From Candidatus Undinarchaeota archaeon (GTDB lineage: Archaea; Undinarchaeota; CAZWFW01): a stretch of 64,000 nt of DNA. Shown in pieces: positions 12,064-45,207 of the stretch (position 1 is its first letter; the number at the start of each line of letters is the position of its first letter). A program made the position numbers and the translations under genes. Under the pieces are notes generated by a model that made no database searches, was not told where the DNA came from, and saw only the letters and a program-made list of their open reading frames with translations. The DNA is taken from the NCBI GenBank assembly GCA_964633445.1, contig CAZWFW010000001.1, positions 6,339-70,338 of the forward strand, given 5' to 3'.

Positions 12064-15000
12064 TTATTTTATAATAAGAGTTATTGCCTCGCTCTGTCCT
12101 CTTATATCACTATACATACCATAAGCTACCGCTGGCTTGGCATAAACGACGCTTGGATATTCAGCAACTAATTCATATTCTATGCTTGCCTCACCCAAAT
12201 GATTAATAAACCACGAGATTTTGTTACCATTAATTTCATACCTCACAATATTCTCACTTAAGTCATCCTTTAGCGAAGTTTCTTTAACCCTGAATCCAGG
12301 AGGTATGTAATCTTCAAGAATAACATAGTAGATATCGTTGCCCCTAATGCTTATTTTAACATTCACAACATCCCCAACCCTTGCAACTGTTTTGTTATAA
12401 CTCTTTTCAACGATTATATCTTTTTCAGGTAAAATCTGCAGCGTTTCGGTTGTTTGCTTAACAATTATGGTATAATAAGGATTGCCAATACCCTCTTTTC
12501 TTATTTCAATAACATTTCTTCCTGTTTCTAAATATTTAGTCACATCAATGATGTAAAGTTCGTCCTTATTTTCCTCAGTTACTGTAAAGCTTTGAACCTC
12601 TTTACCATTAACAAAAATGCTTAGTTTATAGTCCGCTTTTTGTTCCTTAGTAATCTTACTATACTCATATATTGCTAGCAGCGCCTCAGCAGTATCTTTT
12701 GTTGTATACCAACCGTAATATCTCTTGTTCTCAATTAACCACTTAATCGCCTCTTGAACAATTCCGTAATACTTAACATTCTCCGTTGCTAATAACGCCC
12801 TTATAGCACATGCAGTTGTTTCAACATCACCTGCAAGTGCTTTACCATGCCAATGGTTATTAACTGCCATGTCATAAAGCTTTTCGGCTAAATGGCTGGT
12901 ATCTCTTCCTGCTTTTTCATAGGCTAGGATTATTAGGGAGAGTGTGTAAGCATCCTCAACATTCTCATGATCTTCCAAATATTCAAGTGCTTTCTGAATA
13001 TGATAATCATCTTTGCTAACACCACTTTCAAGCAAAGCTAAAGTTACGTAAGCTGTCATAGCAACATCATTACCCCTTAACCAATGACTACCATGCCATG
13101 CACCATTGTATTCTTGTCTCTGCATCAAAACCCTCTGAGCCCCATCAATTATGCTCCCATCAACATAGAAACCTACCTGTTTGGCTTTAGCTAGGCCAAA
13201 TAATACGTAAGCCGTCATGAACTCATTAGTAGCATCATTTTCCCACCACCCCCATCCCCCATCGCTATGTCTAAAGCTATAAATTCTTTGTAAACCTTTA
13301 GCTATCATATCATCAAGCTTTTTCTCAAATTCCTCATCAAGCATACCTTTTTCTTTTAGAAGCATTTTGATTATGATATCAGGATATAAGCTACTCATCG
13401 TTTGTTCAACACATCCGTAAGGATACCTTGCAAGTCTTTCTACCCCTACAATTGAAATGCTTAGTAAAGTAGGTTGGATGAGGATCTTAGCATTGGTAAA
13501 TTCTGGAATAGCATTTTCGTATATCTCAAACTCCTTTTTAACATAATTGCTTTCAAGCACACCTGAAAATGATAAGGTTATTGGCTCTATCTTTGGCGTA
13601 ATCAAAATTTGCTTTCTTACGCCATCTGAATACTCGCCTGAATAAGCAACTACAGTGACATTTGCTGAGCCATAACTTGTTAACTTAACATACCAACTTA
13701 CCTCCTTCGCTTCATTTGGTCTTAATCTAACTACTTTTGTTTCATTATCCAGTATGACAAATTTCTTGGATTGAATTAAGGTAACATAAGCATCTATGCT
13801 TTCATCCAAAAAGTTAAACACCCTAGCGCTTATGGTTACCTCATCCCCAACCGTCGCTTCACTAGGCACATGAACCTTTATAAAGAAGTCTTTCTTGGCA
13901 ATAACCTCAGCATCATTATTACTTCCAACATCACAATTCTTAGAGGCTGCTAAGGCAAGAACTTGCCACGTTGTTATACTATCAGGCAATTTGAATTTTA
14001 CCTCTGCGGTACCATCTTTTGCTATAATTTCTTTCCATAAAGCTGTGTCTGGGAAGTAGTATCTTATCTCTATTCCCTTAGGAATATACCCAACACCCCT
14101 TGCCTCTTCTTCTAGCGTTTTAGGTGCCCCAATACCCGCAGCCCATTCCTCATATGTGAGATACTGTGGTGCGGCCCTCATAACCATTCCTCCCATAAGG
14201 AACATGCCTATAAGCAAGAAAACTACAACAAAAATTGCTGAGAGAATCGCTACACAAACAAGCACTGGTTTTCTCATATCTTTTCTTATAGCAGCTAAAA
14301 TGGCCAAAGCTATTATGAAAATTGGTAAAATCCAGAAGGCAGATGCTCCTGAAATTACTAAAAGAAGTAGAGAAAATGGAACAGCTAATCCAGCCAAGTA
14401 GTATCTTGTAGGTCTCCTTTTTACTTTGAGAATTACCAAAGCACCAAGCAAGGACGCAGTTGAGATGGTTGCCCACGCATCTTCATCTACATATCCGATT
14501 CCGAGAACATCAATAATTACTGCAAGAATAAATGCAGCCCCTAAGATTAAAGTTGGTAGTATAGCATACAAATATCTTGCTCTTCCAGTTTTAGCTAAAT
14601 ATACTGATGCAAGCGCTAGTGTTAGCAAAACTATAACTATAGCTAGAAGAATAAGTTTTTCAGCAATTTCGTTAACTTTCCACCTATCCACCTCAATTGC
14701 TGTTAGCGATACTCTGATGCTTTGAGCAGGGTTAGCATAATAGTGCTCAAATGGCGAGAATTTGTTTTCTTTCAGTATTTGAACAGATTTATCTATTACT
14801 GCAAAACTAACTAATGCTGAAATTGGCTTATTATCTTTAGAAACTTTAAATTTTATAGTTGCTTCTTCTCTTGGCTCATAAATTTTCTTATCGGATATTA
14901 TTTCAACATCTAGTTTCTTATCTGGCAAAACGTATATTGAAATTTCGTCATATGGGCAGGGAACACCATAACTTCCTTTAACAAGTTTTGGCGAAACATA

Positions 15001-16701
15001 TTCATAAGCATAAGTTCTATAGTAAGGATAACTGTATTTTCTGCAATCTTTTAAGACATATGCTCTTATAATAGCGTTCTGATATGAGGGCTTAGCTTTG
15101 ATAGTTAATTCAGCTTTTGCATCATTATCAAGCCTTACAGCATAGAAATCTGATGCATAAGATCCTAGAACACTCACATAAACGATTTCGTTTCTGTACT
15201 TCTCCTTTGCCAGTATGCCAAGCTTTATATCCTCGTTTTCTCTATATTCTTTCTTATCAGAGAAAACAACTATGTTTTTTTGCTCAATTTCATTAACTTG
15301 TGGTCTGCAATAAATACCCCTTCTGGAGTAATACCAGCAAGGTTTATAATTTAGGAAAATCTCTTTTTCTGCTGAATAAACACCATCATCTATGCTGAGT
15401 GTTATTTTAACATATTCAACTCCGCTTGGGTACCTGAACTTTATTAAAAACCCAGCACCCCTGCTTGCACCTTCGTCTAGTACCTCCTCCTGCAACTCGT
15501 TATCAACAATTTTATATCCTATAAGCTTCCATGTAGTTCTCGCATTACTTGCCTCTGTGCTATCAGGATATGCTATTGAAACGTAAACTTCAACATTGTC
15601 CCCCTCTCTATAAACTTCCTTGTTTTTCTGAATTTCTACATTAAATGCAGATGTTACGATGGGTATTTTCTTTATAGCTGAGGTTTCTATACCTAAAACT
15701 TCGCTTTTTGCTTCTATTACAAGGGACTTTGGATATCTCCAATAATGGTGGTAGTAATAGGGAATCTCAAAGGGAAATCTAACTATGCAAATTCCTTGGG
15801 AATTTGTTATACAGCTATCCTGTTGAATAATATTCCTTTCACGCCACCCAGATACTTCCAAATAAACCTTGTAATCGATTTTCTGGTTAACAACTGGATC
15901 TCCGAAAATATAAGTCAATTTGAATTTTACCTCAAACTCCTTATCATCCCTTGTAATCCAGTTTTTGCTCAGAATATCTAATTTAGCCTCTGGTTTTTCG
16001 TATTTTCTTATCTCGACAACCAATTTTTCAGTAGTATTCCCATATAATGCTGTAAATGAATAGTTTCCAATCTCAGCTTCTTTATCTATAGGGAAGCTAA
16101 GGGAAAAATGACTAAAATCGTCTGTCTCAACATTTTTCTTAAAGATAATTCTATTAGACGGATTTCTTACTATTAAAGCAACGGTTTTATGAGTAATTGG
16201 TGCGTATGTTCCATTGATTTGCTGCCAAACAAAACCAGCAACCTTTATTTCCTGGCCTGGCTTATAAATTTTTCTATCTGAATATAAATATATCTTAGCT
16301 TTTCTTTTCTCGATCTTTATCATTCTAGAGATCTCTCTGCTCTTACCGTGGTGCCATGCTTTAACTTTAAGCTCATAATTCCCTTCTGGTAAGTCTGGCA
16401 AAGTTATTCTTGCCATACCTGCTTTATTTGCTATTACGGTTTCCTCAAAATCGCCAATCCCAAAAGTTATTTTTGCATAAGGTAGTGGTTTGTAATCGGG
16501 GGATAATGCCATAGCAAAACCGTTAAGCTCTTCACCAGCATATTGCGTATCAGATATTTCTAAAAGCAGATTTATTTTCGTGTATTTGTTGTATAAATAG
16601 AAAAGCTTAGATAACCATAGCGGTGATGAGAAAAGCAGAATGCTTAAAGCTATAAGAGATATTATCGCAAACTTCAATTTTCTAAAAGAAACTTTTTTCA
16701 T
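12064..16701 (-). CDS. Alpha-2-macroglobulin-like thioester protein with internal multi-TM block
   Basis: N-terminal signal-anchor. Several MG-type repeats (SDRKIYKPGQEIKV, SDKKEYRENEDIKL, SDKKIYEPREEATI). Hydrophobic block at about nt 14177-14660. Then YFPDTALW...LPDSITTWQVLALAAS, the thioester motif YPYGCVEQT (CVEQ = 13402-13413) and DGGWGWW in a TED-like region. Confidence 0.85.
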   Translation of the reverse strand: MKKVSFRKLKFAIISLIALSILLFSSPLWLSKLFYLYNKYTKINLLLEISDTQYAGEELNGFAMALSPDYKPLPYAKITFGIGDFEETVIANKAGMARITLPDLPEGNYELKVKAWHHGKSREISRMIKIEKRKAKIYLYSDRKIYKPGQEIKVAGFVWQQINGTYAPITHKTVALIVRNPSNRIIFKKNVETDDFSHFSLSFPIDKEAEIGNYSFTALYGNTTEKLVVEIRKYEKPEAKLDILSKNWITRDDKEFEVKFKLTYIFGDPVVNQKIDYKVYLEVSGWRERNIIQQDSCITNSQGICIVRFPFEIPYYYHHYWRYPKSLVIEAKSEVLGIETSAIKKIPIVTSAFNVEIQKNKEVYREGDNVEVYVSIAYPDSTEASNARTTWKLIGYKIVDNELQEEVLDEGASRGAGFLIKFRYPSGVEYVKITLSIDDGVYSAEKEIFLNYKPCWYYSRRGIYCRPQVNEIEQKNIVVFSDKKEYRENEDIKLGILAKEKYRNEIVYVSVLGSYASDFYAVRLDNDAKAELTIKAKPSYQNAIIRAYVLKDCRKYSYPYYRTYAYEYVSPKLVKGSYGVPCPYDEISIYVLPDKKLDVEIISDKKIYEPREEATIKFKVSKDNKPISALVSFAVIDKSVQILKENKFSPFEHYYANPAQSIRVSLTAIEVDRWKVNEIAEKLILLAIVIVLLTLALASVYLAKTGRARYLYAILPTLILGAAFILAVIIDVLGIGYVDEDAWATISTASLLGALVILKVKRRPTRYYLAGLAVPFSLLLLVISGASAFWILPIFIIALAILAAIRKDMRKPVLVCVAILSAIFVVVFLLIGMFLMGGMVMRAAPQYLTYEEWAAGIGAPKTLEEEARGVGYIPKGIEIRYYFPDTALWKEIIAKDGTAEVKFKLPDSITTWQVLALAASKNCDVGSNNDAEVIAKKDFFIKVHVPSEATVGDEVTISARVFNFLDESIDAYVTLIQSKKFVILDNETKVVRLRPNEAKEVSWYVKLTSYGSANVTVVAYSGEYSDGVRKQILITPKIEPITLSFSGVLESNYVKKEFEIYENAIPEFTNAKILIQPTLLSISIVGVERLARYPYGCVEQTMSSLYPDIIIKMLLKEKGMLDEEFEKKLDDMIAKGLQRIYSFRHSDGGWGWWENDATNEFMTAYVLFGLAKAKQVGFYVDGSIIDGAQRVLMQRQEYNGAWHGSHWLRGNDVAMTAYVTLALLESGVSKDDYHIQKALEYLEDHENVEDAYTLSLIILAYEKAGRDTSHLAEKLYDMAVNNHWHGKALAGDVETTACAIRALLATENVKYYGIVQEAIKWLIENKRYYGWYTTKDTAEALLAIYEYSKITKEQKADYKLSIFVNGKEVQSFTVTEENKDELYIIDVTKYLETGRNVIEIRKEGIGNPYYTIIVKQTTETLQILPEKDIIVEKSYNKTVARVGDVVNVKISIRGNDIYYVILEDYIPPGFRVKETSLKDDLSENIVRYEINGNKISWFINHLGEASIEYELVAEYPSVVYAKPAVAYGMYSDIRGQSEAITLIIK

Positions 16702-16707
16702 GAAAAT

Positions 16708-18504
16708 TCACCACATAACCTTCTTAATGGCATTCCTTTTCCATACTATGATTATAATGAAAAGAATTAGCAAAAATGTCCAGAGAATCTTAGACTCAAG
16801 CTTCATGCCAACAACCTCAACATAAACTTCCTCATTCGGTTTCAAATTTCTAAATTTCCCTTCCAAATACTTATTCATTCTTGGAATCTCTATTTCTATT
16901 GGTACACCTCTCTTTGTTACAACAACCTCCTCAACTTGCTTCTCAACACCTATCTCCCTTAAAACTTGAGCTTGCTGAGCAAAAAATCCTTTACCACCCA
17001 GCGTTATTTGTCTATATGGTCTTGTGGGAATAAATTCAACAATCTTCAACTCCATTTCAGGTTTCGAGCTCATTTTCAATTTTTTGAAATCTGTTGGCAG
17101 ACCTAGCTTAATCGCCCCTTCAAGAATTGGTGCTGAAATCTTGGGCAAATACGCTAAGTAAGTTAATAGAACATTTCCTTTTTGAACATTATCTTGTGTG
17201 TAGATTACTATTAATTCGAAATCTCTATAGTCATTACCAACTTTTTCTGAAAGAGGCAGAGGAATTTTTATTTTTTCTTGCTCCTTATAGGCGAAAGCAT
17301 TTTCACCGTCTATCAAAGCTCCCCAGAACGTTGCATTATCTGGCAAAGTCAACTCCAATGTTTTACCAGGCTCCGTATTTACAATGCGATACGTTGCTTT
17401 AACAAGTGCAAAATCCTTTGTAGGTAATATATCGTACGTTGCTTGCTTAATAATAGTAGCTAAAACACCTACTTCCTCAACTTTTTCTTTGGATATAAGC
17501 AGAGAAAATTTTTGGCCTTCATACGTTGCCACCAAAACGTAATCTGCAGCATATTTTCTTCCAAAATCCAGCAAATCCTGCCTTTCATACGGGGATATCT
17601 CCCTTACATTAGTTGCAGATGTAACGTTAATCTCAAATCCCTTTGCATATACTGCCAATGCACAAGCATACGCATCTGTAGCTCCTTTTTCTAAAAATAT
17701 CGTTGGCTGTGTAATATTGAGAGTTAGAACTTCAAATTTAAGCGTTAATAGAAGACTGTTTGTAGATCTAGGCAAGACTGCTGAGAGAGTATTATTTTCA
17801 ATCTCAGCAAAATCTAAAAGATGATAGTCGCTTCCAGCATAAGTGGCTATCGCATCCTCCAATCTATAGTTTGATGGGAAACTTAATTTTATGTAATTAA
17901 AGCTACCCGCGGATGTTGGGTGATATATAAATATTGCTTTGTCCTTATCTGCTAGGGTTATTATAGCATATGCCCTCTCTATTTCCTGCGGTAAAGTTAT
18001 CTCCTGCCATTCAGATTTAACATTTAGAGAATTTGCATTTGTAACCAGCCAAACAATCTTGTTTTCAACCCATTCATAGGGTTCAGGAGTGGGGTGAACC
18101 TTTAATTTTCTATAAAATTCATTATCGAACTCATATTCCATCTCCAAAATTTTTGCGGGGCTTGGCAAAGAAATTGAAGATTCCGCCTTATTCTTACAAA
18201 TCTTAATCCCATCAGCTAAGATTATATGTTTACCAGAAGTTAAATTAATTTTAAGCAAGTTGTAAGCATATTGCTCCTCAGAAACTGGGTTATTATCTAC
18301 ATAAACATCTTCAACAGCAAAATCCCCTAATGGCAGAGTGATTGTTGTATTCCTGAATGCTGAAATTTCTATTCTTAGCGAGACATCGCACTTATTCTCA
18401 GAAATCTTGTAAGCAAGTTCGTATTTATTTATGGTGTAATCCTGAGCATGTGCGTAATTCAAGCTTGTCAAGACCAGTAAAAGTAATATAAACAGACCCC
18501 TCAT
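16708..18504 (-). CDS. Exported protein with C-terminal TM anchor, unknown function
   Basis: 598 aa with signal peptide MRGLFILLLLVLTSLNYAHA|Q and C-terminal TM ILWTFLLILFIIIIVW followed by KRNAIKK. 6-nt gap to the A2M-like gene and ATGA overlap with the upstream gene. Confidence 0.7.
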   Translation of the reverse strand: MRGLFILLLLVLTSLNYAHAQDYTINKYELAYKISENKCDVSLRIEISAFRNTTITLPLGDFAVEDVYVDNNPVSEEQYAYNLLKINLTSGKHIILADGIKICKNKAESSISLPSPAKILEMEYEFDNEFYRKLKVHPTPEPYEWVENKIVWLVTNANSLNVKSEWQEITLPQEIERAYAIITLADKDKAIFIYHPTSAGSFNYIKLSFPSNYRLEDAIATYAGSDYHLLDFAEIENNTLSAVLPRSTNSLLLTLKFEVLTLNITQPTIFLEKGATDAYACALAVYAKGFEINVTSATNVREISPYERQDLLDFGRKYAADYVLVATYEGQKFSLLISKEKVEEVGVLATIIKQATYDILPTKDFALVKATYRIVNTEPGKTLELTLPDNATFWGALIDGENAFAYKEQEKIKIPLPLSEKVGNDYRDFELIVIYTQDNVQKGNVLLTYLAYLPKISAPILEGAIKLGLPTDFKKLKMSSKPEMELKIVEFIPTRPYRQITLGGKGFFAQQAQVLREIGVEKQVEEVVVTKRGVPIEIEIPRMNKYLEGKFRNLKPNEEVYVEVVGMKLESKILWTFLLILFIIIIVWKRNAIKKVMW

Positions 18505-19130
18505 CTTACAACGCTTGCTTTTTCTACAAATCCATAGCTTGCCTCAGCTAGGATTCCCGCTCTTACTTTTGGGGTCGGATGGAAAAGTAGATCCACAAAT
18601 TGAACTAGTGTAAAGATAAGAATACATAAAGTTACTATAATTAAAATAACTGTCTCCCAATCTTTTCTCTTTTCATGCTTAAAATATAAGTAAAGATATC
18701 TTATACTTGCAGCACCTCCTAACCATATTGAGATTATATGTAACACTACTGGCGAATGATCTGTTAAACTATAAAGAATGTTTAACGGTAGGATGGCAAG
18801 CATGACTAAAGTTGCTACCAAAAAAGTTACAAGGTTTCTTGAAAATGCATTAATAACAGTGTCTCTTGAGCCAAAAATCCATGTAAGCATATAAAGAGGA
18901 ATTGTTGCAAAAAGAATTGTTAAAATTTCTGTTACAGGAAATTTCCACGCAAATGCTAAAGATGTTTGGAAAATTTTATCTAATAAGTATCCGTAGATTG
19001 CCCCATAGATTGAGGAAAATATAATAAGCGCCAAGGAAAAATATAAGACGGTTATTTTTTCCTTGTTTAGCATATCAAAACTCTTCTCAGGCTTTTTTAG
19101 GAGAGATATTACTGCTGTTATAGCACCCAT
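18501..19130 (-). CDS. Polytopic membrane protein (about 5 TM; Yip1-like impression, unverified)
   Basis: 209 aa with a short soluble N-terminus followed by 5 hydrophobic helices. First gene of the three-gene unit ending in the A2M-like gene. Confidence 0.6.
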   Translation of the reverse strand: MGAITAVISLLKKPEKSFDMLNKEKITVLYFSLALIIFSSIYGAIYGYLLDKIFQTSLAFAWKFPVTEILTILFATIPLYMLTWIFGSRDTVINAFSRNLVTFLVATLVMLAILPLNILYSLTDHSPVVLHIISIWLGGAASIRYLYLYFKHEKRKDWETVILIIVTLCILIFTLVQFVDLLFHPTPKVRAGILAEASYGFVEKASVVR

Positions 19131-19295: not shown

Positions 19296-20252
19296 TCAAC
19301 CAAGACTTGCTAGAAACTTTATTCTCTTAAGAGTATTCGGATGTGTGCTAAGCAACTCCATAATTCTTTCGGCAAATCCTACTCTTATTTTCTTACTCCT
19401 TAAAGCTGCAAGCTCGTCTTCTTCAATTTTTCCACTCATATCCATATCGATTTGCTTTAATTCAGTAATTTCGTTGTAAGCCCTTGAAACATCATTTAAA
19501 AAGAATGCCTTTAATCCCTCAACTCTCCTCAATTCGCTTTCATCACTTCTTGCGGAACCATAAACTATCTTGTAAAGCGCTGAAGCTAGAGCGCTTGGCT
19601 TATTACCAAGCTTAACACTCCCTAAATCAGCATAGTACTCTCTTATTCTTGAAGCATATAGAACGACAAGATTTGTTATTAGGTAAAATATAAATGCTGC
19701 TAACCCAATTATTATTGCTTGCGCTGGTCTTTCCTCAAATGCTGCAACATAAATACTGTTTCTTGCGATCATCCAGCAAATTAGTGGTATTGCGCTTAAC
19801 ATCGTAATTATTATGACATCCCTATTTTTCAAGTGCGAAATTTCGTGCCCTAAAACAGCTTTTAATTCCTCTCTATCAAGCAACTCTACTATTCCTCTTG
19901 TTACACAAACTCTACCATCTCCAACTCCTCTGCCAAATGCAAATGCGTTTGGTATGCTTAAGTTGCATATACCAACTTTAGGTTTTCTAATTTTTGCTTT
20001 TCTCGCGAGCTCTTCAACAATTTCATGCAACTCTGGGTATTCCTCTTTGCTAATATATCTTACACCCATGCTAAGCTCCACAATCTTAGGACCGATAAGA
20101 TATTGGATAAAGAGAAGAAAACATGCGAAAGATACTGCAAACGCAATGCTATAAAATCCAAAAATAACACTTACTATAGATGCTATAGCATAGAATAAAG
20201 CAAATGCTAGCATCAAAACAAAAAACATCTTTATTCTTAGGATAAATGTCAT
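19296..20252 (-). CDS. htpX: HtpX-like M48 zinc metalloprotease
   Basis: HEISHLKNRD (HExxH) sits between TM helices. N-terminal 2 TM plus a further TM pair, and C-terminal STHPNTLKRI, as in HtpX homologues. Confidence 0.9.
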   Translation of the reverse strand: MTFILRIKMFFVLMLAFALFYAIASIVSVIFGFYSIAFAVSFACFLLFIQYLIGPKIVELSMGVRYISKEEYPELHEIVEELARKAKIRKPKVGICNLSIPNAFAFGRGVGDGRVCVTRGIVELLDREELKAVLGHEISHLKNRDVIIITMLSAIPLICWMIARNSIYVAAFEERPAQAIIIGLAAFIFYLITNLVVLYASRIREYYADLGSVKLGNKPSALASALYKIVYGSARSDESELRRVEGLKAFFLNDVSRAYNEITELKQIDMDMSGKIEEDELAALRSKKIRVGFAERIMELLSTHPNTLKRIKFLASLG

Positions 20253-20490: not shown

Positions 20491-20506
20491 AAAGTTTAAA
20501 TATTTT
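20491..20506 (+). promoter_or_regulatory. Putative TATA/BRE promoter of rgy
   Basis: aaagTTTAAATAtttt lies about 25-33 nt upstream of ATG 20529, implying a very short or absent leader. Confidence 0.4.
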
Positions 20507-20528
20507 GAGGGGATTCCAACATACAGGT

Positions 20529-23500
20529 ATGAAAGCCATTTTCAAAGACTTTTGCCCAAACTGTAATGGGGAAATAGATGATGAGAGACTTTGGCATAAA
20601 GTTCCTTGCGAAAAGTGTTTACCCTTATCTTTGGACAAAGTTAAAAAACTAAGCGAAAATCTCAGCAATTTAGAATTTAAAGAGCTAATTTACGAGTTAC
20701 TAAATGAAAGAGGAACTCTAAAGAATTATTCAAAAATATATGAGCTGGAGAGAAGGGTTGAGGAAGTTAACAAGATTTTTGAGGCATGTATAGGCAGCGG
20801 TCTTTGGTCTGCCCAGAAAGTTTGGGTAAAGAGAATTTTAAACAAAGTAAGTTTTGCTTTGATAAGTCCTACAGGAATGGGAAAAACAACGTTTGGTATG
20901 GTAATGTCCCTTTATTTGGCAAAGCATGGTAAGAAATGTTACATAATTTTGCCAACGACGATCCTTGTTAAACAAATAAACGATAGACTTGAAGAGTTTA
21001 TGGAAAAAAGCGGGGTTAGAGTTAGAGTTTTAGCATATCATACCGAATTAAAAAAAGGCGAGAAAGAGGAGGTAAAGGAGAAGATAACTAAAGGAGAATT
21101 CGATATATTAGTAACATCAAGTCAATTCCTAGCAAGAAACTTTGAGATAATAAAAAAGCAGAGATTCTATTTCATATTTGTGGATGATGTTGACGCTTTT
21201 CTTAAAGCATCCAAAAACATTGACAGGGTTTTGTTTCTCATGGGATTTTCTGAAGATGCCATCAAAGCCGCTATGGAGATTATTAAAATTAAAAAACAGT
21301 TAGTTGTCAGGAGGGATAAAAATCTCGAAGATAAGCTAAAAACTCTTGAAAGAAGTTTGGAGGAGTTTAAGGATGTCGAAAGCATTCTTGTGGTTTCCTC
21401 AGCAACTGGTAAGGTTAAGGGCGATAAGGTAAAAGTTTTTAGAGAATTACTCAACTTTGAAGTTGGCACTGCAAGGGAAGGGGCTAGAAATATAGAGCAT
21501 ATTTGGCTTGAAGGCAAGCTAGAGGATATCTGTGAAATAATTAGGAAAATGGGTGGTGGTTGCTTAATATTTGTTCCTATAGATGCTGGTACAGAGCTTG
21601 CCAAGGAAATTGAGCAGTTTTTAATTTCGAAAGGAATTAACGCTAAAGCTGTTCATGCAAAAACTAAAAAGAGTGTTATTGATCGCTTTGCTAAAGGGGA
21701 AATTGATGCGTTGATAGGAGTAGCGAGTTATTATGGTGTTATTGTGAGAGGATTGGATATTCCCGAGAGGGTTAGGTATGCAATATTTTATGGAATTCCG
21801 AAATTCAAATTCTCCTTAGAGATAAAGGAGAGGAATCCGATTAGGGTTCTGTCCCTGCTATCTACCTTAAGGGAATTTTCAAGTAACAAAGAAAGAGTTG
21901 ATAGAATGATTATAAAATTAAGAAGGATACTGTCAAAGCTGTCACCAGAGGATTTGAGGAAAGTTGAGGAAAGCCAACAGTTAAATGATTTTTTGGTGTA
22001 TGTTAAGCAAGAATTTGAAAAAGCTGCTGAATTTTTGCAGAATATGCTCAAAAATAAGGAGGTTCTAGATAAAATAGGAAAAAGCCCGTATATTTCTCTA
22101 GTTAAAGAAAGTGAAGGATTATTCATAAAAATACCTGATGTAAGAACATACATACAGGCTACAGGTAGAACTTCAAGAATGTATGCTGGTGGTATTACCA
22201 AAGGAGCTTCCTTTGTCTTTATAGATGATGAAAAGGTGTTTAATGGTTTGAAAAGGCAGCTGATATTACTTGATGAGGAGTTCAAAAGTATTGGTGAAGT
22301 TGATCTTAAGAAGATTAAGGAGGAGATAGAAAGGGATAGGAAATTGCTTACTGAAATCAGGGAGGGTAAAGTTAAAGTTGAGGCAAAAGAACCCGTTAAA
22401 TCTTGTTTGTTTATTGTTGAATCCCCAAACAAAGCAAAAACAATTGCAAATTTCTTTGGTAGACCATCTAAGCGTAGAATTGGTGAATTGGTTGCTTATG
22501 AAACACATACTGGAGATTTCGCTTTAACAATAATTGCAACTGGTGGACATATTTTAGATTTAGCTCATGATGGTATATATGGGGTTAAGAGGGTTAATGG
22601 TAAATTTATTCCGATCTACACGACAATTAAAAAATGTAGGAAATGTAATGAGCAATTTGTTGAGGGTGATGTATGCCCGAATAAGAAATGCAATTCAAAG
22701 GACATATTTGATAGCAGGTATACAATTGAAGCATTAAGGCATCTTGCAGATGAAATAGGATATGTTATAGTCGGTACAGATGCTGATTCGGAAGGTGAGA
22801 AAATTGCTTGGGATGTAGCAACATTAATCGCACCTTTTGCAAAAGAAATAAAGAGAGCTGAGTTTCACGAGGTTACTAGGAGAGCTATTTTGAACGCTTT
22901 GGAAAATCCAAGAGAAATTGACGAATTTAGGGTTAACGCTCAAATTGTAAGGCGTATTGAGGATAGGTGGATTGGCTTCTACTTAAGCCAAGATTTATGG
23001 AGAATATTTGAAAAGGGTTGGCTTTCGGCTGGTAGGGTGCAAACGCCAGTACTTGGCTGGGTAATTGAGTTTGAGAAGCTTGCAAGAAAGAAGAAGTCAG
23101 TAGTTAGGATAGTACTTGAGAATGATGCTGTTGTGGATTTTGAGTTTAAAAACATTAGACAGGCTAAGAAATTTGCTGAAGATGTTGAGGAAGCGTATGT
23201 GGAAATACTTGAGGAGAAAGAGGAGAAAATAAAGCCGAATCCCCCATATACAACTGATACTTTACTAAGGGACGCTTCTCGCTTCTTCAGACTTGATGCT
23301 CCAAAGGTTATGCAAATTGCGCAGGATCTTTTCGAGGCTGGGTTATGCTTGACACCAGACACCTACGTAATTATGCATGATGGAAGTATTAAGAAGATAG
23401 GCGATATCTCCGAAAATGAAAATGTTTTGGGCTTGAACAATCTACATGAGATGCCTGCAAAGGTACTAAGGTTTTGGAAGATACCGTATAAAGGTGTGAT

Positions 23501-25598
23501 CAAAGAAATAGTGCTTGAGAATAATTATAGCATAAAGGCTACTCCAGATCACGGAATTTTTGTTTACAGAGATGGTAAATTTGGTTGGGTTTCAGCTAAG
23601 AATGTAAGGGTTGGAGATTATGTGGCAGTAGCTTTCAATGTCAACATTAAAAGAGAAAGCTTAGGTTTACTCGAATTATTGGCGAAGCTTGGAATATTGG
23701 ATATATGCGTCGAATTCAAGAAAGATTCAAAACTATTTGAAAAGCTTAAAAAGAGAGTTGATGGAAGTAAGGCAAGTGCAAAATATAAGTATATGGGAAG
23801 CAGGGCAATTCCTTTAAAGTATTTAGATAAATGGGGCATTGATCTAAAAGCCGTTGAAAGGGAAGCAACCACCATTTCCAAGCAGAGATCCTCAGCTGAA
23901 AAAATTCCAATTTTTAAATTAAATAGCGATTTTTGGTACTTCGTTGGACTGGTTATGGGTGGTGGAACAATCGAAGAAGAGAAAATTGTAATATCTCAAA
24001 AAGATGCTAAGGAAATCAAAAGGATACTTGAAAATGTGTTTCCATTTGCCAATGTGAGGATTGCTGGCACGCAAGTTTACCTTGCTAATTCGATTATAGC
24101 AGAGATTTTAAGAAAACTGGATGTAAGGGGCAAGTTAAATGGTTTAGTGTTTTCACTGCCAGAGGATTGCATAAATGCTATGATAGCTGGATATATTGAT
24201 GCTGATGATAGCATTTCGTTGAAGTTTGACAAGAAATGTTGTAAAAACAATCTTAGAATTGTTATAAGTAATAAAGAAAGGGAAAAAATTGAGAAAATTG
24301 GATATTACCTATGCTTGATTGGTATTTTGAACACATTGCATAAGGATGAAAAAACAGGTATTTGGAAACTAATTTTAGGCAATAAATCGCTTAAGACGTT
24401 TAAAAAGAAGATTGGTAAACATCTTAGAACTAGGAGAAAGATTTTTGAGAAAGCATACAAAGCATGCGCAAGTGAGCATCTAGAGTCAGATTTTGTTCCG
24501 TTTAGTAAATTTTTCAAGTTACTTAAATTTGGGAAAGGTGTTGAGGGTAGAATTCTCAAAGAACTTTGCACTGATGCTCGAAATTTGGATGACTGTGCAT
24601 GTATACAAAGAGAAAAGCTTAAGAAGGTAGTTAAATTGGCTGAAGACACTGATGTTAAGACATTTTTGCTTGAACTGTTAAATGCCAATGTTTCATGGGT
24701 TAGAGTGAAGGAGGTTAGGAATAGGCAATATAACGGATATGTTTACGATATAACAACTGCAACATCAAACTTCTTTGCTAATGCGATACTTAACCACAAC
24801 TGCACCTATCACCGTACAGATTCAACAAGAGTATCAAAGGAAGGTTTGAACGTTGCTAGGGAATTGGTTGAGGAAAGTTTTGGCAAGGAATATTTCAAAG
24901 CAAGAATTTGGTATATGGAAGGTGCCCATGAGTGCATAAGGCCCACAAAACCACTTACGAGAGAGTATCTCGAGGAGTTGATTAATACTGGCGCGCTAAC
25001 ATTGCCTAGACAATTAACCTTTTGGCATCTTGTAGTTTATGAGCTCATTGTGAATAGATTTATGGCAAGTCAGATGAGAGAGGCTAGAGTTGTTAAACAG
25101 AAAGTAAAAGTAAGTGTTAAAGATGTTGAAAAAGAAGTTGAAGGATACGCTAAGGTAGCTGATGAAAGTTTCCTAAAGATAACTAAGGTACCAATGATAC
25201 CCGAGTTTAGGAATGGTAGGGTAAAAGTTAAAGATGTAAAGGTAATGAGGGTACCATCATCCAAGTTGCTTACGCAAGCGGATCTCGTTGCTTTAATGAA
25301 GGAGAGGGGTATAGGTAGGCCATCAACCTATGCTACAATAATTGCTAAATTGTTCAAAAGGGGTTACCTTTACGAGCTTGGTAAGGAGAAGAGGATTAAT
25401 AAAATTGTGGCAAGGAAAATTGGCAAGGAAGTTTTTCAGTATTTGATTAGCAATTATCCTCATTTAATTAGCGAGGAGCGTACAAGGAAACTTGAGGAGG
25501 ATATGGATATGATAGAGGAGGGTAAGAAAGATTATCAGGAAGTTCTAAATGAAATTTACAAGGAAATCTTTGAGCCAGAAATACTCAAGCAATATTAA
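20529..25598 (+). CDS. rgy: Reverse gyrase (helicase-topoisomerase IA fusion), interrupted by an intein
   Basis: N-terminal Zn finger CPNCNG...CEKC, helicase Walker A SPTGMGKTT and FVDDVDA. Toprim/topo IA region with active-site CTYHRTDS restored after intein removal. The track start 20505 is TTG and the first ATG is 20529. The extein is 1204 aa from ATG 20529 (1212 from the track TTG start). Confidence 0.97.
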   Translation: MKAIFKDFCPNCNGEIDDERLWHKVPCEKCLPLSLDKVKKLSENLSNLEFKELIYELLNERGTLKNYSKIYELERRVEEVNKIFEACIGSGLWSAQKVWVKRILNKVSFALISPTGMGKTTFGMVMSLYLAKHGKKCYIILPTTILVKQINDRLEEFMEKSGVRVRVLAYHTELKKGEKEEVKEKITKGEFDILVTSSQFLARNFEIIKKQRFYFIFVDDVDAFLKASKNIDRVLFLMGFSEDAIKAAMEIIKIKKQLVVRRDKNLEDKLKTLERSLEEFKDVESILVVSSATGKVKGDKVKVFRELLNFEVGTAREGARNIEHIWLEGKLEDICEIIRKMGGGCLIFVPIDAGTELAKEIEQFLISKGINAKAVHAKTKKSVIDRFAKGEIDALIGVASYYGVIVRGLDIPERVRYAIFYGIPKFKFSLEIKERNPIRVLSLLSTLREFSSNKERVDRMIIKLRRILSKLSPEDLRKVEESQQLNDFLVYVKQEFEKAAEFLQNMLKNKEVLDKIGKSPYISLVKESEGLFIKIPDVRTYIQATGRTSRMYAGGITKGASFVFIDDEKVFNGLKRQLILLDEEFKSIGEVDLKKIKEEIERDRKLLTEIREGKVKVEAKEPVKSCLFIVESPNKAKTIANFFGRPSKRRIGELVAYETHTGDFALTIIATGGHILDLAHDGIYGVKRVNGKFIPIYTTIKKCRKCNEQFVEGDVCPNKKCNSKDIFDSRYTIEALRHLADEIGYVIVGTDADSEGEKIAWDVATLIAPFAKEIKRAEFHEVTRRAILNALENPREIDEFRVNAQIVRRIEDRWIGFYLSQDLWRIFEKGWLSAGRVQTPVLGWVIEFEKLARKKKSVVRIVLENDAVVDFEFKNIRQAKKFAEDVEEAYVEILEEKEEKIKPNPPYTTDTLLRDASRFFRLDAPKVMQIAQDLFEAGLCLTPDTYVIMHDGSIKKIGDISENENVLGLNNLHEMPAKVLRFWKIPYKGVIKEIVLENNYSIKATPDHGIFVYRDGKFGWVSAKNVRVGDYVAVAFNVNIKRESLGLLELLAKLGILDICVEFKKDSKLFEKLKKRVDGSKASAKYKYMGSRAIPLKYLDKWGIDLKAVEREATTISKQRSSAEKIPIFKLNSDFWYFVGLVMGGGTIEEEKIVISQKDAKEIKRILENVFPFANVRIAGTQVYLANSIIAEILRKLDVRGKLNGLVFSLPEDCINAMIAGYIDADDSISLKFDKKCCKNNLRIVISNKEREKIEKIGYYLCLIGILNTLHKDEKTGIWKLILGNKSLKTFKKKIGKHLRTRRKIFEKAYKACASEHLESDFVPFSKFFKLLKFGKGVEGRILKELCTDARNLDDCACIQREKLKKVVKLAEDTDVKTFLLELLNANVSWVRVKEVRNRQYNGYVYDITTATSNFFANAILNHNCTYHRTDSTRVSKEGLNVARELVEESFGKEYFKARIWYMEGAHECIRPTKPLTREYLEELINTGALTLPRQLTFWHLVVYELIVNRFMASQMREARVVKQKVKVSVKDVEKEVEGYAKVADESFLKITKVPMIPEFRNGRVKVKDVKVMRVPSSKLLTQADLVALMKERGIGRPSTYATIIAKLFKRGYLYELGKEKRINKIVARKIGKEVFQYLISNYPHLISEERTRKLEEDMDMIEEGKKDYQEVLNEIYKEIFEPEILKQY
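23346..24800 (+). mobile_element. Intein (485 aa) with LAGLIDADG homing-endonuclease domain in the rgy topoisomerase active site
   Basis: Starts ...EAGL|CLTPDTYV and ends ...AILNHN|CTYHRTDS. Block B TPDH is present. LAGLIDADG-like motifs are FVGLVMGGGT and MIAGYIDADD. Boundaries were placed by codon counting from 20505. Confidence 0.9.
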
Positions 25599-25712: not shown

Positions 25713-27002
25713 ATGAGGCTAGAGGAATTCTTTAAATTGATTGAAAATGGAGAAAGTGAGAGAATAGAGTTTAAGGAGAAAGTAACGAAAAATATTGCTG
25801 AGGAGATAGTTGCATTTGCAAACTCTTTGGGAGGTTACTTGTTAATAGGAGTGAAAGACGATAAAACACTTGTAGGTCTTAATACTAAAGAATTGCAAGA
25901 GGCCAAAAGATTCATATCTAATTGCCTAGCGAATATTGCTCCACCCATAACAGTAAAATTTCATGAAGTGAGAATAAATAGAAAGAGTTTTCTAATAGTG
26001 GAAGTTCCAAAATCAAAATATATTTGTTCCATTGGTGGTATAGCCTACATTAGAGTTGGCACATCCAAAAGACCTTTATCAATTCAAGAAACACTAACTT
26101 TAGGCGCAGAAATTCTACTTTTTCCCTTCGATAAAACACCAACAAAAATTCCTGCAAAATTAATCTGGGAAGATGCCTTGAAGAGGTACGAAAGAGGTTT
26201 GAAGGAGAGAAATATTAAGGTAAGCGATATCTACTATCATTTAAAAAAATTGGATGTAATTATATCAAAGAAAGGTAGAGATTTCTTGACATTTGGAGGT
26301 GCCTTAATTTTCCTTGAAAACCCCCAAGAATATTTTCCACAGAGTTACTTAAGGGTTTGCTTTGAAGAAGGTTACACAAGAATCTCAGGCCCTCTATGGA
26401 AAATTATTGACAAGTTTGTGGAAGCTTTCTTTAAGCAAGAGATCCTTAGATATGTGCTAAAAGGATTTAGGAGAATAGATTATGAAATGTTGCCAGCAAG
26501 GATTTTAAGAGAAGGTGTAACTAACGCTTTGATTCATAGAAATTATACAATATCCTCTGAAACTTTTGTTTCCTTAGAAAGCAACGCTATCAAAATAAAG
26601 AATCCTGGAGCCTTTCCTCCTGGAGTTACCCCTGAGGATCCTCATCCTGTGGCGAGAAATCCACTAATATATGAATTGATGTTTAATATGGGTTACATAG
26701 AGAAGCAAGGTGCTGGGGTAAAAATGATATTTGAAGAAGCGAGAAAAAATCCTTATTTGGATGTTGAATATAAGATTTCGCCAAACTTCACAACATTGCT
26801 ATTAAAATTTAAGGTTGAGCTAGATGAAGTCGATAAGAAAATACTAGACGCCTTAATTGGTCCAAAATCTTCAAGTGAGATTGCTAGAATTGTAGGATTA
26901 AGCAAACCAGCTGTAATTAATAGGCTAAACAGACTAATTGATGCCAAACTTGTTAAAAGGATTGGAAGTGGGGCAAAAACCAAATATAGGTTAACAAGTT
27001 AA
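25713..27002 (+). CDS. Schlafen/AlbA_2-type DNA-binding protein with HATPase_c_4-like and C-terminal wHTH domains (COG2865-type putative regulator)
   Basis: ESERIEFKEKV...IVAFANSLGGYLLIGVKDD (AlbA_2 signature), REGVTNALIHRNY (ATPase-like region), and a C-terminal wHTH (SSSEIARIVGLSKPAVINRLNRLIDAKLVKR). Confidence 0.8.
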   Translation: MRLEEFFKLIENGESERIEFKEKVTKNIAEEIVAFANSLGGYLLIGVKDDKTLVGLNTKELQEAKRFISNCLANIAPPITVKFHEVRINRKSFLIVEVPKSKYICSIGGIAYIRVGTSKRPLSIQETLTLGAEILLFPFDKTPTKIPAKLIWEDALKRYERGLKERNIKVSDIYYHLKKLDVIISKKGRDFLTFGGALIFLENPQEYFPQSYLRVCFEEGYTRISGPLWKIIDKFVEAFFKQEILRYVLKGFRRIDYEMLPARILREGVTNALIHRNYTISSETFVSLESNAIKIKNPGAFPPGVTPEDPHPVARNPLIYELMFNMGYIEKQGAGVKMIFEEARKNPYLDVEYKISPNFTTLLLKFKVELDEVDKKILDALIGPKSSSEIARIVGLSKPAVINRLNRLIDAKLVKRIGSGAKTKYRLTS

Positions 27003-30119: not shown

Positions 30120-31481
30120 ATGGTGGGTATACAAGAGATCCCAGAGGATGTTAGAGAATTGGAAAGAGTTGCTGCACATAGCCACATTAAGGGCTTGGGA
30201 TTAGAAGGCTTGAAGGCAAAATTTATTGCTGATGGATTTGTTGGGCAAGAAGAGGCAAGAGAAGCTGCAGGTATAATTGTTAGGCTTATAAAAGCTGGTA
30301 GATTTGGTGGAAGAGCGATATTGATCGCTGGACCACCTGGCACAGGTAAGACTGCAATTGCTGTGGGTATAGCAAGGGAGCTTGGTAAAGACGTTCCGTT
30401 TGTTCCTTTAACCGCAAGCGAAATATACTCTGCTGAAGTTAAGAAAACGGAATTTTTGACACAAACACTAAGAAAGGCTATTGGTGTTAGAATAAGGGAA
30501 TTAAGGAAAGTTTATGAGGGTGAAGTAGTTGAGCTTAATATTGAGCGCAAACCCCATCCCTATAATCCATATTTTCAGATTCCTGTAGCTGCAACAGTTA
30601 AGCTTGAGACTAAGGATGAATCAAAACGTTTGAGCGTTGATCAGAATTTCGCAATGCAATTGATGCAGCAGGGTGTTAATGAAGGGGATGTTATACAAAT
30701 AGATGTTGATGGCGGGCGATTAATAAGACTTGGACCAAGTGAGAGAATAGCTAATAAACTCAAGGATATAACTACTGAAAAGCCAGTTCCTCTGCCAGTA
30801 GGTAAAGTACTTAAAGAAAAGGAATTTGTTTATGTGCTTAGCTTACATCAGCTTGATATGATGCGTGCTAGAAGTGAGGTTGACATATTTGGCTTGCTTT
30901 TTGGTTCAACAAGAAAGGAGGTTGATTCCGAGGTAAGGAGAGAGGTAGATGAACTTGTAAAAGAGATGGTTGAAAAAGGTAAAGCTGAGCTTGTACCAGG
31001 GGTAATATTTATTGATGAATGCTCACTGCTTGATATTGAAACGTATGCATTTCTTAACAGAGCGTTGGAGCAAGAATTAAGTCCAATAATAATATTTGCT
31101 ACAAATAGAGGAACCGCAAGAATTAGGGGCACTGATCAGGTTTCCCCTCATGCAATGCCGCTTGATTTGCTTGATAGAGTTCTGATAATTACCACAAGAC
31201 CGTATAATGAGGAGGAGATAAGAGAGATAATAAAGATAAGAGCTAAGGCAGAAAAAATTGGAATTGATGAGCAGGCATTGGAATTATTAACGAAACTTGG
31301 AGTTGAGCGTTCCTTGCGTTATGCTTTGCAATTACTTGCGCCAGCTTATGAAGTTGCTAAGGAAGAAGGTAAGGAAAAAGTTTGTAAAGAACATGTTGAA
31401 GCTGTTGCTAAGCTATTTGTTGATGTTAAGAAATCATCTAAATACTTAAAGAAGATGGAGGAAAAATTGCTTAGTTACTAA
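30120..31481 (+). CDS. TIP49/RuvB-like (RuvBL1/2 homologue) AAA+ ATPase
   Basis: HSHIKGLGL, Walker A GPPGTGKTAIA, an inserted OB-like domain II (about aa 125-235) and Walker B VIFIDECSLLD. 453 aa, collinear with eukaryotic pontin/reptin. Confidence 0.92.
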   Translation: MVGIQEIPEDVRELERVAAHSHIKGLGLEGLKAKFIADGFVGQEEAREAAGIIVRLIKAGRFGGRAILIAGPPGTGKTAIAVGIARELGKDVPFVPLTASEIYSAEVKKTEFLTQTLRKAIGVRIRELRKVYEGEVVELNIERKPHPYNPYFQIPVAATVKLETKDESKRLSVDQNFAMQLMQQGVNEGDVIQIDVDGGRLIRLGPSERIANKLKDITTEKPVPLPVGKVLKEKEFVYVLSLHQLDMMRARSEVDIFGLLFGSTRKEVDSEVRREVDELVKEMVEKGKAELVPGVIFIDECSLLDIETYAFLNRALEQELSPIIIFATNRGTARIRGTDQVSPHAMPLDLLDRVLIITTRPYNEEEIREIIKIRAKAEKIGIDEQALELLTKLGVERSLRYALQLLAPAYEVAKEEGKEKVCKEHVEAVAKLFVDVKKSSKYLKKMEEKLLSY

Positions 31482-44085: not shown

Positions 44086-45207
44086 TTATTTTTTAAATTT
44101 TCTAATCTCCTCTAATTTTTTGCTGAATTCCTTTAGAGAATTAGCAAATCCCTCAACACTTGCTGTAACTTCCTCAGCCCCAGCTGCGTTCTCTTCAGCT
44201 GCTGCAGCAATTTCTGTTATTGTTGTCGAAACTTGTTGTATATTTTTAGCTTGTTGTTGTTGGGATGCAGAAACTTGCTGCATTTGTGCAGCAATTCTCT
44301 GAATGGCTTCAGCAATAGTTCTAAATGCTAGTAAAGCATTAGCAGATGTTTTGACAGCCTTTGTAACACTACTTTTGGCTATTCCTGCAGATTCTACAGA
44401 TTTAGCGCTATAAGTTTGTATTTCTCCAAGTAAATCGGAAATTTTTGTTGCAGCAACTCTTGAATTTTCAGCCAACTTTCTAATCTCATCAGCAACTACT
44501 GCGAATCCTCTACCAGCTTCACCAGCTCTTGCAGCTTCTATAGCAGCATTTAATGCTAGTAAGTTAGTTTGTAATGATATATCTTTTATAGTTTCGACAA
44601 TTTTTCCAATTTCCTGACTTTTACCACCCAAATTTTTAATTATATCAGAAAGCTCCACAACAATTTTCTCGCTATTTTTAAGCTCCTCTATAGCTTTTTC
44701 AGCGCCTTCCTTACCCCTAGTAGCACTTTTACTTATATCAACTGCAAGTTTTTCTGCTTTCTGAATACTTGAGCTAATTTGTTGTGAAGCTGCTGAAAGC
44801 TCTATAATTGCTTTTCTAATGTCCTCAATTTGAATAGATTGATTTTGAGCATTTTTTGCCATTTGCTGAGTAACAGCATTAATTTCCTTGGAAACATCGA
44901 CAATATTTGAAAAAGACTTCATCATCTTTTCTATTTCGCTGGAAATACCTTCTTTTACTTTCACTTCAATAGAGTCTAAAACATCGTTTAAAGCTTGTGC
45001 AAAAACTTTGAAATTAGGATCGGGAATCTCATCTGGGTTTACTCTTGCCTTTATATTTCCCTCCTTGTATATTCTAAGCAAAACTTCACATATCTTACCA
45101 ATACTTTCACTAATTTCAGAGGCTACTCTTCCCACTTCCTCAGGTTTGTTAACATGTTCAAAAACTTTAGCTTTTAACTCGTTTATGTCCAAAAATTTCT
45201 CAGTCAT
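44086..45207 (-). CDS. Soluble methyl-accepting chemotaxis protein
   Basis: Highly conserved signalling hairpin [35 protein letters not shown] see no hydrophobic segment, so it is probably cytoplasmic. Confidence 0.92.

Follow-up and report, generated by a model that had tools for sequence, protein, structure and literature searches.

Proteins of the alpha-2-macroglobulin (A2M)/thioester-containing protein (TEP) family are central to animal complement and to a periplasmic defence of bacteria. The bacterial A2Ms (E. coli ECAM, also named YfhM, and YfaS) display a multi-MG architecture with MG2 and A2M domains, a TED carrying a CxEQ motif and a bMG10-like C-terminus; they are attached to the cytoplasmic membrane by a lipid anchor, face outward and are encoded in operons with dedicated envelope partners (yfhM-pbpC, yfaS-yfaPQTA), among which PBP1c is murein-specific. 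Here, we describe three adjacent genes, below called the trio, of which one encodes a membrane-anchored, outward-facing protein of the same architecture. The trio is found on the minus strand of a 64,000-nucleotide (nt) stretch of DNA (contig CAZWFW010000001.1 of a Candidatus Undinarchaeota archaeon, here “the window”). It encodes, in order, a 209-amino-acid (aa) protein related to Yip1, a 598-aa protein with a predicted Ost1/ribophorin-I-like fold and a 1545-aa A2M-like protein.

The trio differs from yfhM-pbpC and yfaS-yfaPQTA in its partners, its anchor and its host. Searches of the two genes upstream of the trio A2M gene and of the gene downstream of it against Pfam and NCBIfam matched none of PBP1c, DUF2135, DUF2300, DUF1175 or DUF2138, and the host is an archaeon. 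Where the bacterial A2M has a lipid anchor, the trio A2M has an N-terminal helix together with an internal “staple” of 2-10 predicted transmembrane (TM) helices, which stands in place of the bait.

Archaeal A2M homologues were surveyed by Makarova et al. 2021, who described 27 proteins, mostly from Halobacteria and Methanomicrobia, and proposed a role in defence or conflict (PMC8416519). In the parts of that paper considered here, these homologues are archaea-specific and resemble the trio A2M in having a signal peptide, an intact CxEQ motif and a location among surface-protein genes, and their genes are followed by those for arCOG14565, Ig-domain proteins, transporters and endoproteases. Yip1 does not appear in its main text, neither Yip1 nor HtpX appears in the portions of its supplement considered, and in the passages on A2M there is no mention of a ribophorin-like partner or of a bait replaced by TM helices. 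Relatives of the trio partners are known from other settings, i.e., YknW, a Yip1-family accessory subunit in the B. subtilis group, modulates assembly of YknXYZ (PMC4887032), archaeal Yip1 cassettes combining arCOG02054 with the SpoIIM-like arCOG01996 were reported in 2015 (PMC5898192) and differ in their partners from the trio, and OST1 homologues were reported only from Asgard and TACK archaea (PMC11417166). The combination of Yip1, macroglobulin and operon was found in no paper of the searched literature.

We regard the trio as a new variant within the A2M/thioester-protein systems. It recurs in three archaeal lineages of deep divergence, which suggests a surface complex not described so far. 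All three products are predicted membrane proteins with large parts on a common outer side. We assign a probability of roughly 0.55 to the reading that the trio is a single operon with translational coupling, and that this operon encodes a cytoplasmic-membrane surface complex arranged around a membrane-stapled thioester protein.

Gene order and the membrane-stapled thioester protein

The order on the minus strand, read from the table of open reading frames (ORFs) and the sequence, is HtpX, the 209-aa gene, the 598-aa gene and the A2M-like gene (Table 1). A first-pass annotation of the window had described the last three as co-directional, with an ATGA overlap and a 6-nt gap as junctions, and both coordinates and junctions were verified: the TGA stop of the 209-aa ORF shares ATGA with the ATG of the 598-aa ORF (junction sequence AGATGAGG), and the TGA of the latter is followed by attttc and then by the ATG of the 1545-aa ORF. 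Its outline of the products also stands. Hydropathy of the 209-aa protein is in line with the five TM segments assigned to it, the 598-aa protein has the signal peptide and TM helix of an exported, C-terminally anchored protein, and the third product carries the domains and the thioester motif of an A2M.

The two junctions within the trio are too short to hold an intergenic promoter or terminator. Oligo-T tracts are absent at both; the two T6 runs on the sense strand (~7 kb) both lie elsewhere. A transcription start or terminator separating the genes, which the annotation had named as evidence against a single unit, is thus left no room. Among the trio genes, a candidate archaeal TATA box is found upstream of the first alone, centred ~31 nt before its ATG, within the spacer that follows HtpX. 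This box is the probable promoter of the three-gene unit, an assignment that is suggestive, by position, because the window contains this motif about as often as expected (11 occurrences vs 8.9). A scan for bacterial sigma-70 promoters and intrinsic terminators, signals that are irrelevant for an archaeon, gave results at or below shuffled expectation.

The 1545-aa protein matches the Pfam families MG2 (2.1e-17) and A2M (7.6e-23) above gathering and TED_complement at 1.4e-38, with weaker matches to bMG10 (1.2e-5, sub-threshold) and A2M_BRD (1.7e-3). The motif GCVEQ occupies residues 1096-1100 (Cys1097...Gln1100). By these profile matches and the motif, it is a true A2M/TEP homologue, laid out as an N-terminal membrane anchor, MG domains, an insertion of six TM helices, the A2M domain, TED and a bMG10-like domain.

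This insertion, a feature absent from the first-pass annotation, follows the bait-region domain and precedes the A2M domain, i.e., six predicted TM helices occupy the segment where a soluble, protease-accessible bait region was sought. An alignment of the trio A2Ms with an A2M lacking the cluster (from locus L014, see below) places it between the motifs ...VDxS..L...PFE..Y and IR..FPDTA.W. Basic loops (KTGRAR, KVKRRPTR and RKDMRK) alternate with acidic or short loops, which fits a location of both large A2M halves outside the cell. The number of helices at the bait position is 2 in L007, 6 in the window, L012 and L006, and 10 in L010, where the cluster is internally duplicated. This number is always even and a polytopic A2M with both halves outside is therefore predicted. 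The CxEQ thioester is kept in all trio A2Ms, which are mutually 33-39% identical over their full length; the nearest A2Ms from outside the trio reach at most 30% over ~43% of the length. As judged from sequence, the trio A2M is a polytopic membrane protein in which TM helices have replaced the bait region, and no description of such an A2M was found in the literature searched. The last TM helix of the window A2M is followed by a ~35-aa polar linker, RAAPQYLTYEEWAAGIGAPKTLEEEARGVG (25-40 aa across the trio A2Ms), which is a possible residual bait.

Two other A2Ms, which have an intact CxEQ motif and ~25% identity to the trio A2M over 43% of the length, also carry a cluster of several TM helices that separates the BRD from the A2M domain and precedes a polar linker. 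One of these, P0028 (L018 8001-12995), is a 1664-aa protein with CFEQ on a contig of sporulating-Firmicute type, which carries Spo0A, YabP and YqfD; the other, P0047, has the same internal cluster. Both are encoded on contigs with sporulation genes, and the internal cluster may be a design that recurs in cells lacking an outer membrane. In lineage C (see below), the MG2 region of the A2M (L010 2988-8216, L006 3457-4677) gives a sub-threshold match to Ribophorin_II_2nd (E 2e-4 to 7e-4), which may reflect only the common beta-sandwich.

Because TM helices replace the canonical bait, classical trapping by bait cleavage is not assured, and the thioester protein could instead be a covalent adhesin or a complement-like tag directed against cells or surfaces, for which the other two proteins would form a membrane receptor or signalling platform. 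A host-attached lifestyle is known among DPANN archaea, and metagenome-assembled genomes (MAGs) with labels of that type (Nanoarchaeia, ‘Nanohalarchaeota’) are the source of three related loci. This reading is wholly inferential, no target-recognition domain is evident in the protein, and the 25-40-aa linker could still serve as bait. In addition, the methyl-accepting chemotaxis protein and HypF encoded in the window suggest a free-living cell. The adhesin or tag is therefore considered unlikely, even though immune or conflict roles were proposed for archaeal A2M/TEP homologues in the parts of the 2021 survey considered here (PMC8416519).

Table 1. Positions of the trio, its main sequence features and the upstream neighbour in the window.
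Feature	Position	Strand	Basis
Gene 1, 209-aa membrane protein assigned to the Yip1 domain family	18501..19130	(-)	ORF table, Pfam, hydropathy, orthologue alignment
Gene 2, 598-aa type-I membrane protein, predicted Ost1/ribophorin-I-like fold	16708..18504	(-)	
Gene 3, 1545-aa A2M/thioester-containing protein	12064..16701	(-)	ORF table, Pfam
Predicted six-TM-helix cluster in the A2M, aa 675-845	14167..14679	(-)	Hydropathy, translation, alignment
Thioester motif GCVEQ, TED domain	13402..13416	(-)	Sequence
Candidate archaeal TATA box TTTATAAA	19158..19165	(-)	Sequence reading; position only
HtpX-type M48 membrane metalloprotease, neighbour outside the conserved module	19296..20252	(-)	Pfam, NCBIfam

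The Yip1-like and Ost1-like partners

The first-pass annotation had called both partners uncharacterised. This description needs correction: the 209-aa protein is assigned to the Yip1 domain family, and the 598-aa protein, whose family has no Pfam or NCBIfam model, has a predicted fold that resembles that of Ost1. The 209-aa protein displays four strong hydrophobic segments and a weaker fifth at ~128-150, which fits five TM helices. It matches Pfam Yip1 (PF04893) with E=4.5e-4 over profile positions 2-168 of 173, at 20.6 bits vs a gathering cutoff of 28.6. The same profile is matched by seven of ten orthologues (E<=0.05; best 3.5e-7), a faint match is also precomputed for the orthologue in L005, and membership is accepted at the family level because of these seven matches. 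Across lineages the orthologues are 31-37% identical in alignment. The predicted topology is N-in/C-out, consistent with the charge distribution.

With its size (~200 aa) and five TM helices, the protein resembles the Yip1 family in general, and the accessory role of YknW resembles that proposed for it below. It differs from the family in its sub-gathering score and in a lineage-specific cluster of polar residues. Invariant in the orthologues, these residues belong to the motifs LPLNxLYxxTxH(x5)H and QFVD (N117, T123, H125, H131, Q177, D180) and are placed at the predicted outer ends of TM3 and TM5. They could form a metal-binding, ligand-binding or catalytic site; we know of no intramembrane-enzyme motif that they fit. 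Only ~24 residues precede TM1, i.e., the cytosolic Rab/Ypt-binding N-terminal domain is absent; this domain defines the eukaryotic Yip1 subfamily (e.g., yeast Yip1p) and not the Pfam domain. Profile searches of PDB sequences with the Yip1-like family yielded nothing meaningful, and matches to a TM helix of SPC1 (E 0.011-0.27) were dismissed as hydrophobic.

The 598-aa protein begins with a signal peptide (predicted cleavage MRGLFILLLLVLTSLNYAHA|QD), continues with an all-beta, multi-domain ectodomain of ~545 aa and ends with a single TM helix (~569-594) and a basic tail of ~10 aa (WKRNAIKKVMW), of which the final Trp is invariant. The family has no match among PDB sequences, as in Pfam and NCBIfam. 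Structure prediction, which the annotation had proposed, recovered an Ost1/ribophorin-I-like fold. An AlphaFold2 model built from 26 homologues (predicted local distance difference test, pLDDT, 79.8) was used for this purpose; an earlier model from 5 sequences (pLDDT 62) was excluded. The eight best Foldseek matches to this model were all Ost1/ribophorin I, with E 1e-8 to 2.5e-7 over ~505 aligned columns. The modelled architecture is that of these proteins, i.e., a signal peptide, two tandem beta-sandwiches resembling the N-domain of M1 enzymes (M1-N-like) and one C-terminal TM helix.

The similarity resides at the fold level of a predicted model, with ~10% identity and global TM-scores of 0.25-0.33. 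None of the 26 family members matches Ribophorin_I (PF04597) at E<=1, and Ost1/RPN1 chains are absent from the results of profile searches of PDB sequences with the family. The beta-sandwich is also widespread, as it occurs in M1 aminopeptidases, TAF2 and VIT domains. For these reasons (similarity at the fold level, low global TM-scores and a common fold) the protein is called “Ost1-like” rather than a member of the ribophorin I family, and the resemblance is not taken as homology to Ost1 specifically. It further differs from Ost1 in the absence of detectable sequence similarity, in its short tail and in its Yip1-like and A2M partners. At no examined locus was an AglB-sized ORF or an STT3 match found beside the pair. 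The cytosolic C-terminal helical bundle of metazoan and Asgard OST1, which binds the ribosome, is missing from the 598-aa protein, as it is from yeast Ost1.

No sequence or profile similarity to the VIT domain (PF08487) was found (hhalign probability 0.2), and a sub-cutoff Pfam match to Phage_lambda_P (E 1.9e-4), restricted to three near-identical sequences, is regarded as spurious. The conserved C-terminal beta-sandwich of the 598-aa protein (its residues ~285-480) recurs as a module in very large proteins of 1400-2700 aa (P0130, P0131, P0134-P0137 and others), which have no Pfam matches as checked for P0130 and P0134. The 598-aa family is therefore broader than its archaeal orthologues.

Recurrence of the trio and of its core pair

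Word-indexed searches with both small genes returned relatives at 83-100% identity only, for which conserved synteny is uninformative because of this high identity. The trio locus is identical in SRR7051321, SRR7051322 and one ENA assembly, and the closest non-identical locus, in GCA_054010715.1, is 85% identical. More distant relatives came from an exhaustive HMMER scan of 1.84 billion protein representatives, in which 40 matches to the 598-aa family included three full-length orthologues at 27-31% identity. Scans of genomes and metagenomes added loci, of which one new locus came from the metagenomes. The genome scan covered 185,579 species representatives, and four archaeal lineages were found to harbor the pair of Yip1-like and 598-like genes.

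Three of these lineages carry the trio. Lineage A comprises the window, L001, L002 and L004; lineage B comprises L007 and L008 (labelled Nanoarchaeia); and lineage C comprises L006, L010, L011 and L012 (MAGs labelled ‘Nanohalarchaeota’). In lineage D (L005, L009, which equals L019 and is labelled Altiarchaeales, and L021) the pair is followed by a 225-aa protein with seven TM helices. The two genes of the pair are adjacent in every locus, overlapping or 0-31 nt apart, and in all loci of lineages A, B and C the next gene, starting at -4 or +6 nt, encodes an A2M. The A2M is 1449 aa long in L007 and its domains were verified by Pfam in L010 and L012; in L008 its N-terminus begins just past a 583-aa gene and reaches the contig end, and in L011 it is found at 81% identity (tblastn) and runs off the contig end. 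L006 (3457-8257) encodes the A2M in two overlapping pieces of 406 and 1260 aa; the MG2 domain is in the 406-aa piece, and the split reflects either an assembly frameshift or a pseudogene.

All three proteins give congruent identity matrices across lineages, and the gene order is retained at 26-39% identity between flanks that are unrelated. In lineage A, HtpX is found upstream and a xylose-isomerase-like TIM-barrel gene (Pfam/NCBIfam) downstream; in lineage B, the upstream gene is class II aminoacyl-tRNA-synthetase-like (L007, L008); in lineage C, a hydrolase gene is located upstream in L012, and in L006 an unrelated ORF is located upstream and genes for GINS and ribosomal proteins downstream. 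The annotation had proposed a comparison of gene neighbourhoods and named absence of conservation as the outcome that would speak against the coupling; the trio instead recurs in three lineages.

Remote homologues of the 598-aa protein were also found. One of these, P0132, is 710 aa long and has three TM helices at its C-terminus; in L014 (622-9760) its gene overlaps the start of a 1577-aa A2M gene, which in turn overlaps a 759-aa VIT-vWA gene. This A2M has CVEQ and a C-terminal TM anchor, and lacks the internal TM cluster; L014 is thus a different A2M operon on the same partner family. At L022 (remote homologue P0151) no A2M was found and only small Cys-rich proteins are encoded downstream.

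A chance adjacency, or one inherited recently without functional meaning, might be considered for a handful of metagenome-derived loci, of which the close relatives (85-99% identity) are uninformative. This explanation is regarded as extremely improbable. The same arrangement, with junctions of -4 to +6 nt, at 26-39% identity and with different flanks is more than chance, these identities argue against recent lateral transfer of a single cassette, and a remote homologue is found in a reinvented version of the arrangement (L014).

HtpX (Pfam M48 1.3e-39, NCBIfam HtpX 2.3e-65) could in principle be a fourth member, which would process the membrane-embedded “bait” or be a regulated target, since this membrane metalloprotease acts where the TM cluster is located, is encoded on the same strand directly upstream and is adjacent also in L001 and L004. 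All of these loci belong to one genus (85-100% identity), and in the other lineages the position is occupied by the synthetase-like gene, the hydrolase gene or the unrelated ORF noted above. Furthermore, the 165-nt spacer harbors the TATA-like box and a T-rich stretch past the HtpX stop codon. HtpX was therefore rejected as a system member, its position not being conserved between lineages, and its participation is very unlikely; the annotation had likewise set it apart at 165 nt.

In lineage D, the 225-aa gene (L005 2537-3214; L009 11765-12442; L021 11765-12442), which has no Pfam match, replaces that for the A2M, and no A2M similarity was found anywhere on the contigs that carry the pair. 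The idea that this 7-TM protein is a detached A2M TM cluster was unsupported (BLASTP E 0.11, hydrophobic matches only). The function of the pair is therefore not strictly dependent on an adjacent A2M, and the invariant core is the pair of Yip1-like and 598-like genes, not the trio. The proposal of the annotation that the two proteins are lineage-specific partners of a surface system is largely supported: the A2M follows them in three lineages, but the core is the pair and lineage D lacks an adjacent A2M.

Accordingly, the pair could be an autonomous two-gene envelope module, e.g., for surface-protein biogenesis, as a holdase linked to glycosylation, or in membrane-protein quality control, with the A2M as a client or passenger. 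Its adjacency in every locus, including that of Altiarchaeales type with the 7-TM protein, is in agreement with this alternative, as is the best structural match, an OST (oligosaccharyltransferase) accessory subunit for nascent secretory and membrane proteins. Remote 598-aa homologues without an A2M exist as well, and so do TM-cluster A2Ms without the pair, on the contig of sporulating-Firmicute type. On the other hand, in three of the four lineages the pair is followed by an A2M gene that overlaps it or starts 6 nt past it and that diverges in step with it, and in L014 an independent remote homologue is again found in an operon with an A2M. No gene of AglB/STT3 size is adjacent in any locus, the sequence signal of Ribophorin_I is missing in the 26 family members searched, and a factor for biogenesis in general should be far more widely distributed than four archaeal lineages among the species representatives scanned. 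An autonomous module is considered possible, if less than probable.

The same observations limit the confidence in a surface complex composed of all three proteins. In the Altiarchaeales-type loci (L005, L009, L021) the pair is retained without an adjacent A2M, other remote 598-aa homologues are not located beside an A2M (L015-L017, L022), and the A2Ms P0028 and P0047 have a TM cluster without Yip1-like or Ost1-like partners, P0028 being surrounded by Agr/LytTR/YfhO and sporulation genes. The likeness to Ost1 holds at the fold level, the independent lineages are few (the trio is present in three of the four), and physical interaction and co-transcription are predictions from sequence, order and conservation. 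These points all weigh against the favoured reading.

Possible mechanism and genomic setting

A membrane complex is the most parsimonious mechanism. If the trio encodes one, its platform in the membrane would be a hetero-oligomer of the Yip1-like protein with the single TM helix of the Ost1-like protein, for which YknW, as a modulator of YknXYZ assembly, and Ost1, as an accessory subunit in OST, provide precedents. The platform would dock on the TM staple of the A2M, and the beta-saddle ectodomains would hold or position the two exported A2M halves during export, during folding or at the surface; elsewhere, the beta-saddle fold contacts extended peptides or client proteins. A foreign protease that cleaves the exposed linker past the last TM helix would then trigger the conformational change usual for A2Ms and thioester attack. 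The captured protease would stay fixed to the cell membrane because both A2M halves are anchored. Capture at the membrane would suit a cell without periplasm or murein, where a PBP1c partner is meaningless. In this proposal the trio A2M would trap proteases, and the partners may have a role in anchoring, assembly or sensing, as the annotation had suggested.

The module bears on how A2M traps may be deployed in cells that have neither murein nor an outer membrane, as it offers an alternative conserved set of partners and an A2M that is stapled to the membrane through its bait region. It provides a first functional context for prokaryotic Yip1 and for the Ost1-like fold, which are nearly without assigned roles in archaea, and it defines a previously unannotated 598-aa family with ~40 representatives among the 1.84 billion proteins. 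In a broader and doubtful version, the trio would be an archaeal surface machine in which ribophorin-I-like and Yip1-like proteins, types otherwise emblematic of the eukaryotic endoplasmic reticulum/Golgi membrane, are arranged around a stapled thioester protein for complement-like fixation of proteases, or of host or competitor molecules, to the membrane. If so, the Ost1 fold would occur outside Asgard and TACK archaea in a role unrelated to N-glycosylation, and the machine would be present in some archaea of hydrothermal habitats, including the MAGs labelled DPANN.

The window also encodes an intein-containing reverse gyrase, aIF5B, eIF2-gamma and TIP49, from which it follows that the host is an archaeon and, as far as gene content indicates, probably hyperthermophilic. 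The reverse gyrase gene (20505-25598, +; 1697 aa) is divergent from that for HtpX and its intein is of the LAGLIDADG-homing-endonuclease type. A second MG2 protein (58801-61278, +; 825 aa) combines DUF2341, MG2 and a weak A2M_BRD match and has no TED; its gene is followed by a 344-aa ORF without Pfam match at E<=1e-5. Between the genes for aIF5B and nucleoside diphosphate kinase, a 1623-aa ORF (52691-57562, -) is also without Pfam match. Other genes encode a protein with Schlafen/AlbA_2, HATPase_c_4 and winged helix-turn-helix domains (25713-27002, +) and the TIP49/RuvB-like ATPase (30120-31481, +). The methyl-accepting chemotaxis protein mentioned above (44086-45207, -) suggests a motile, free-living host.

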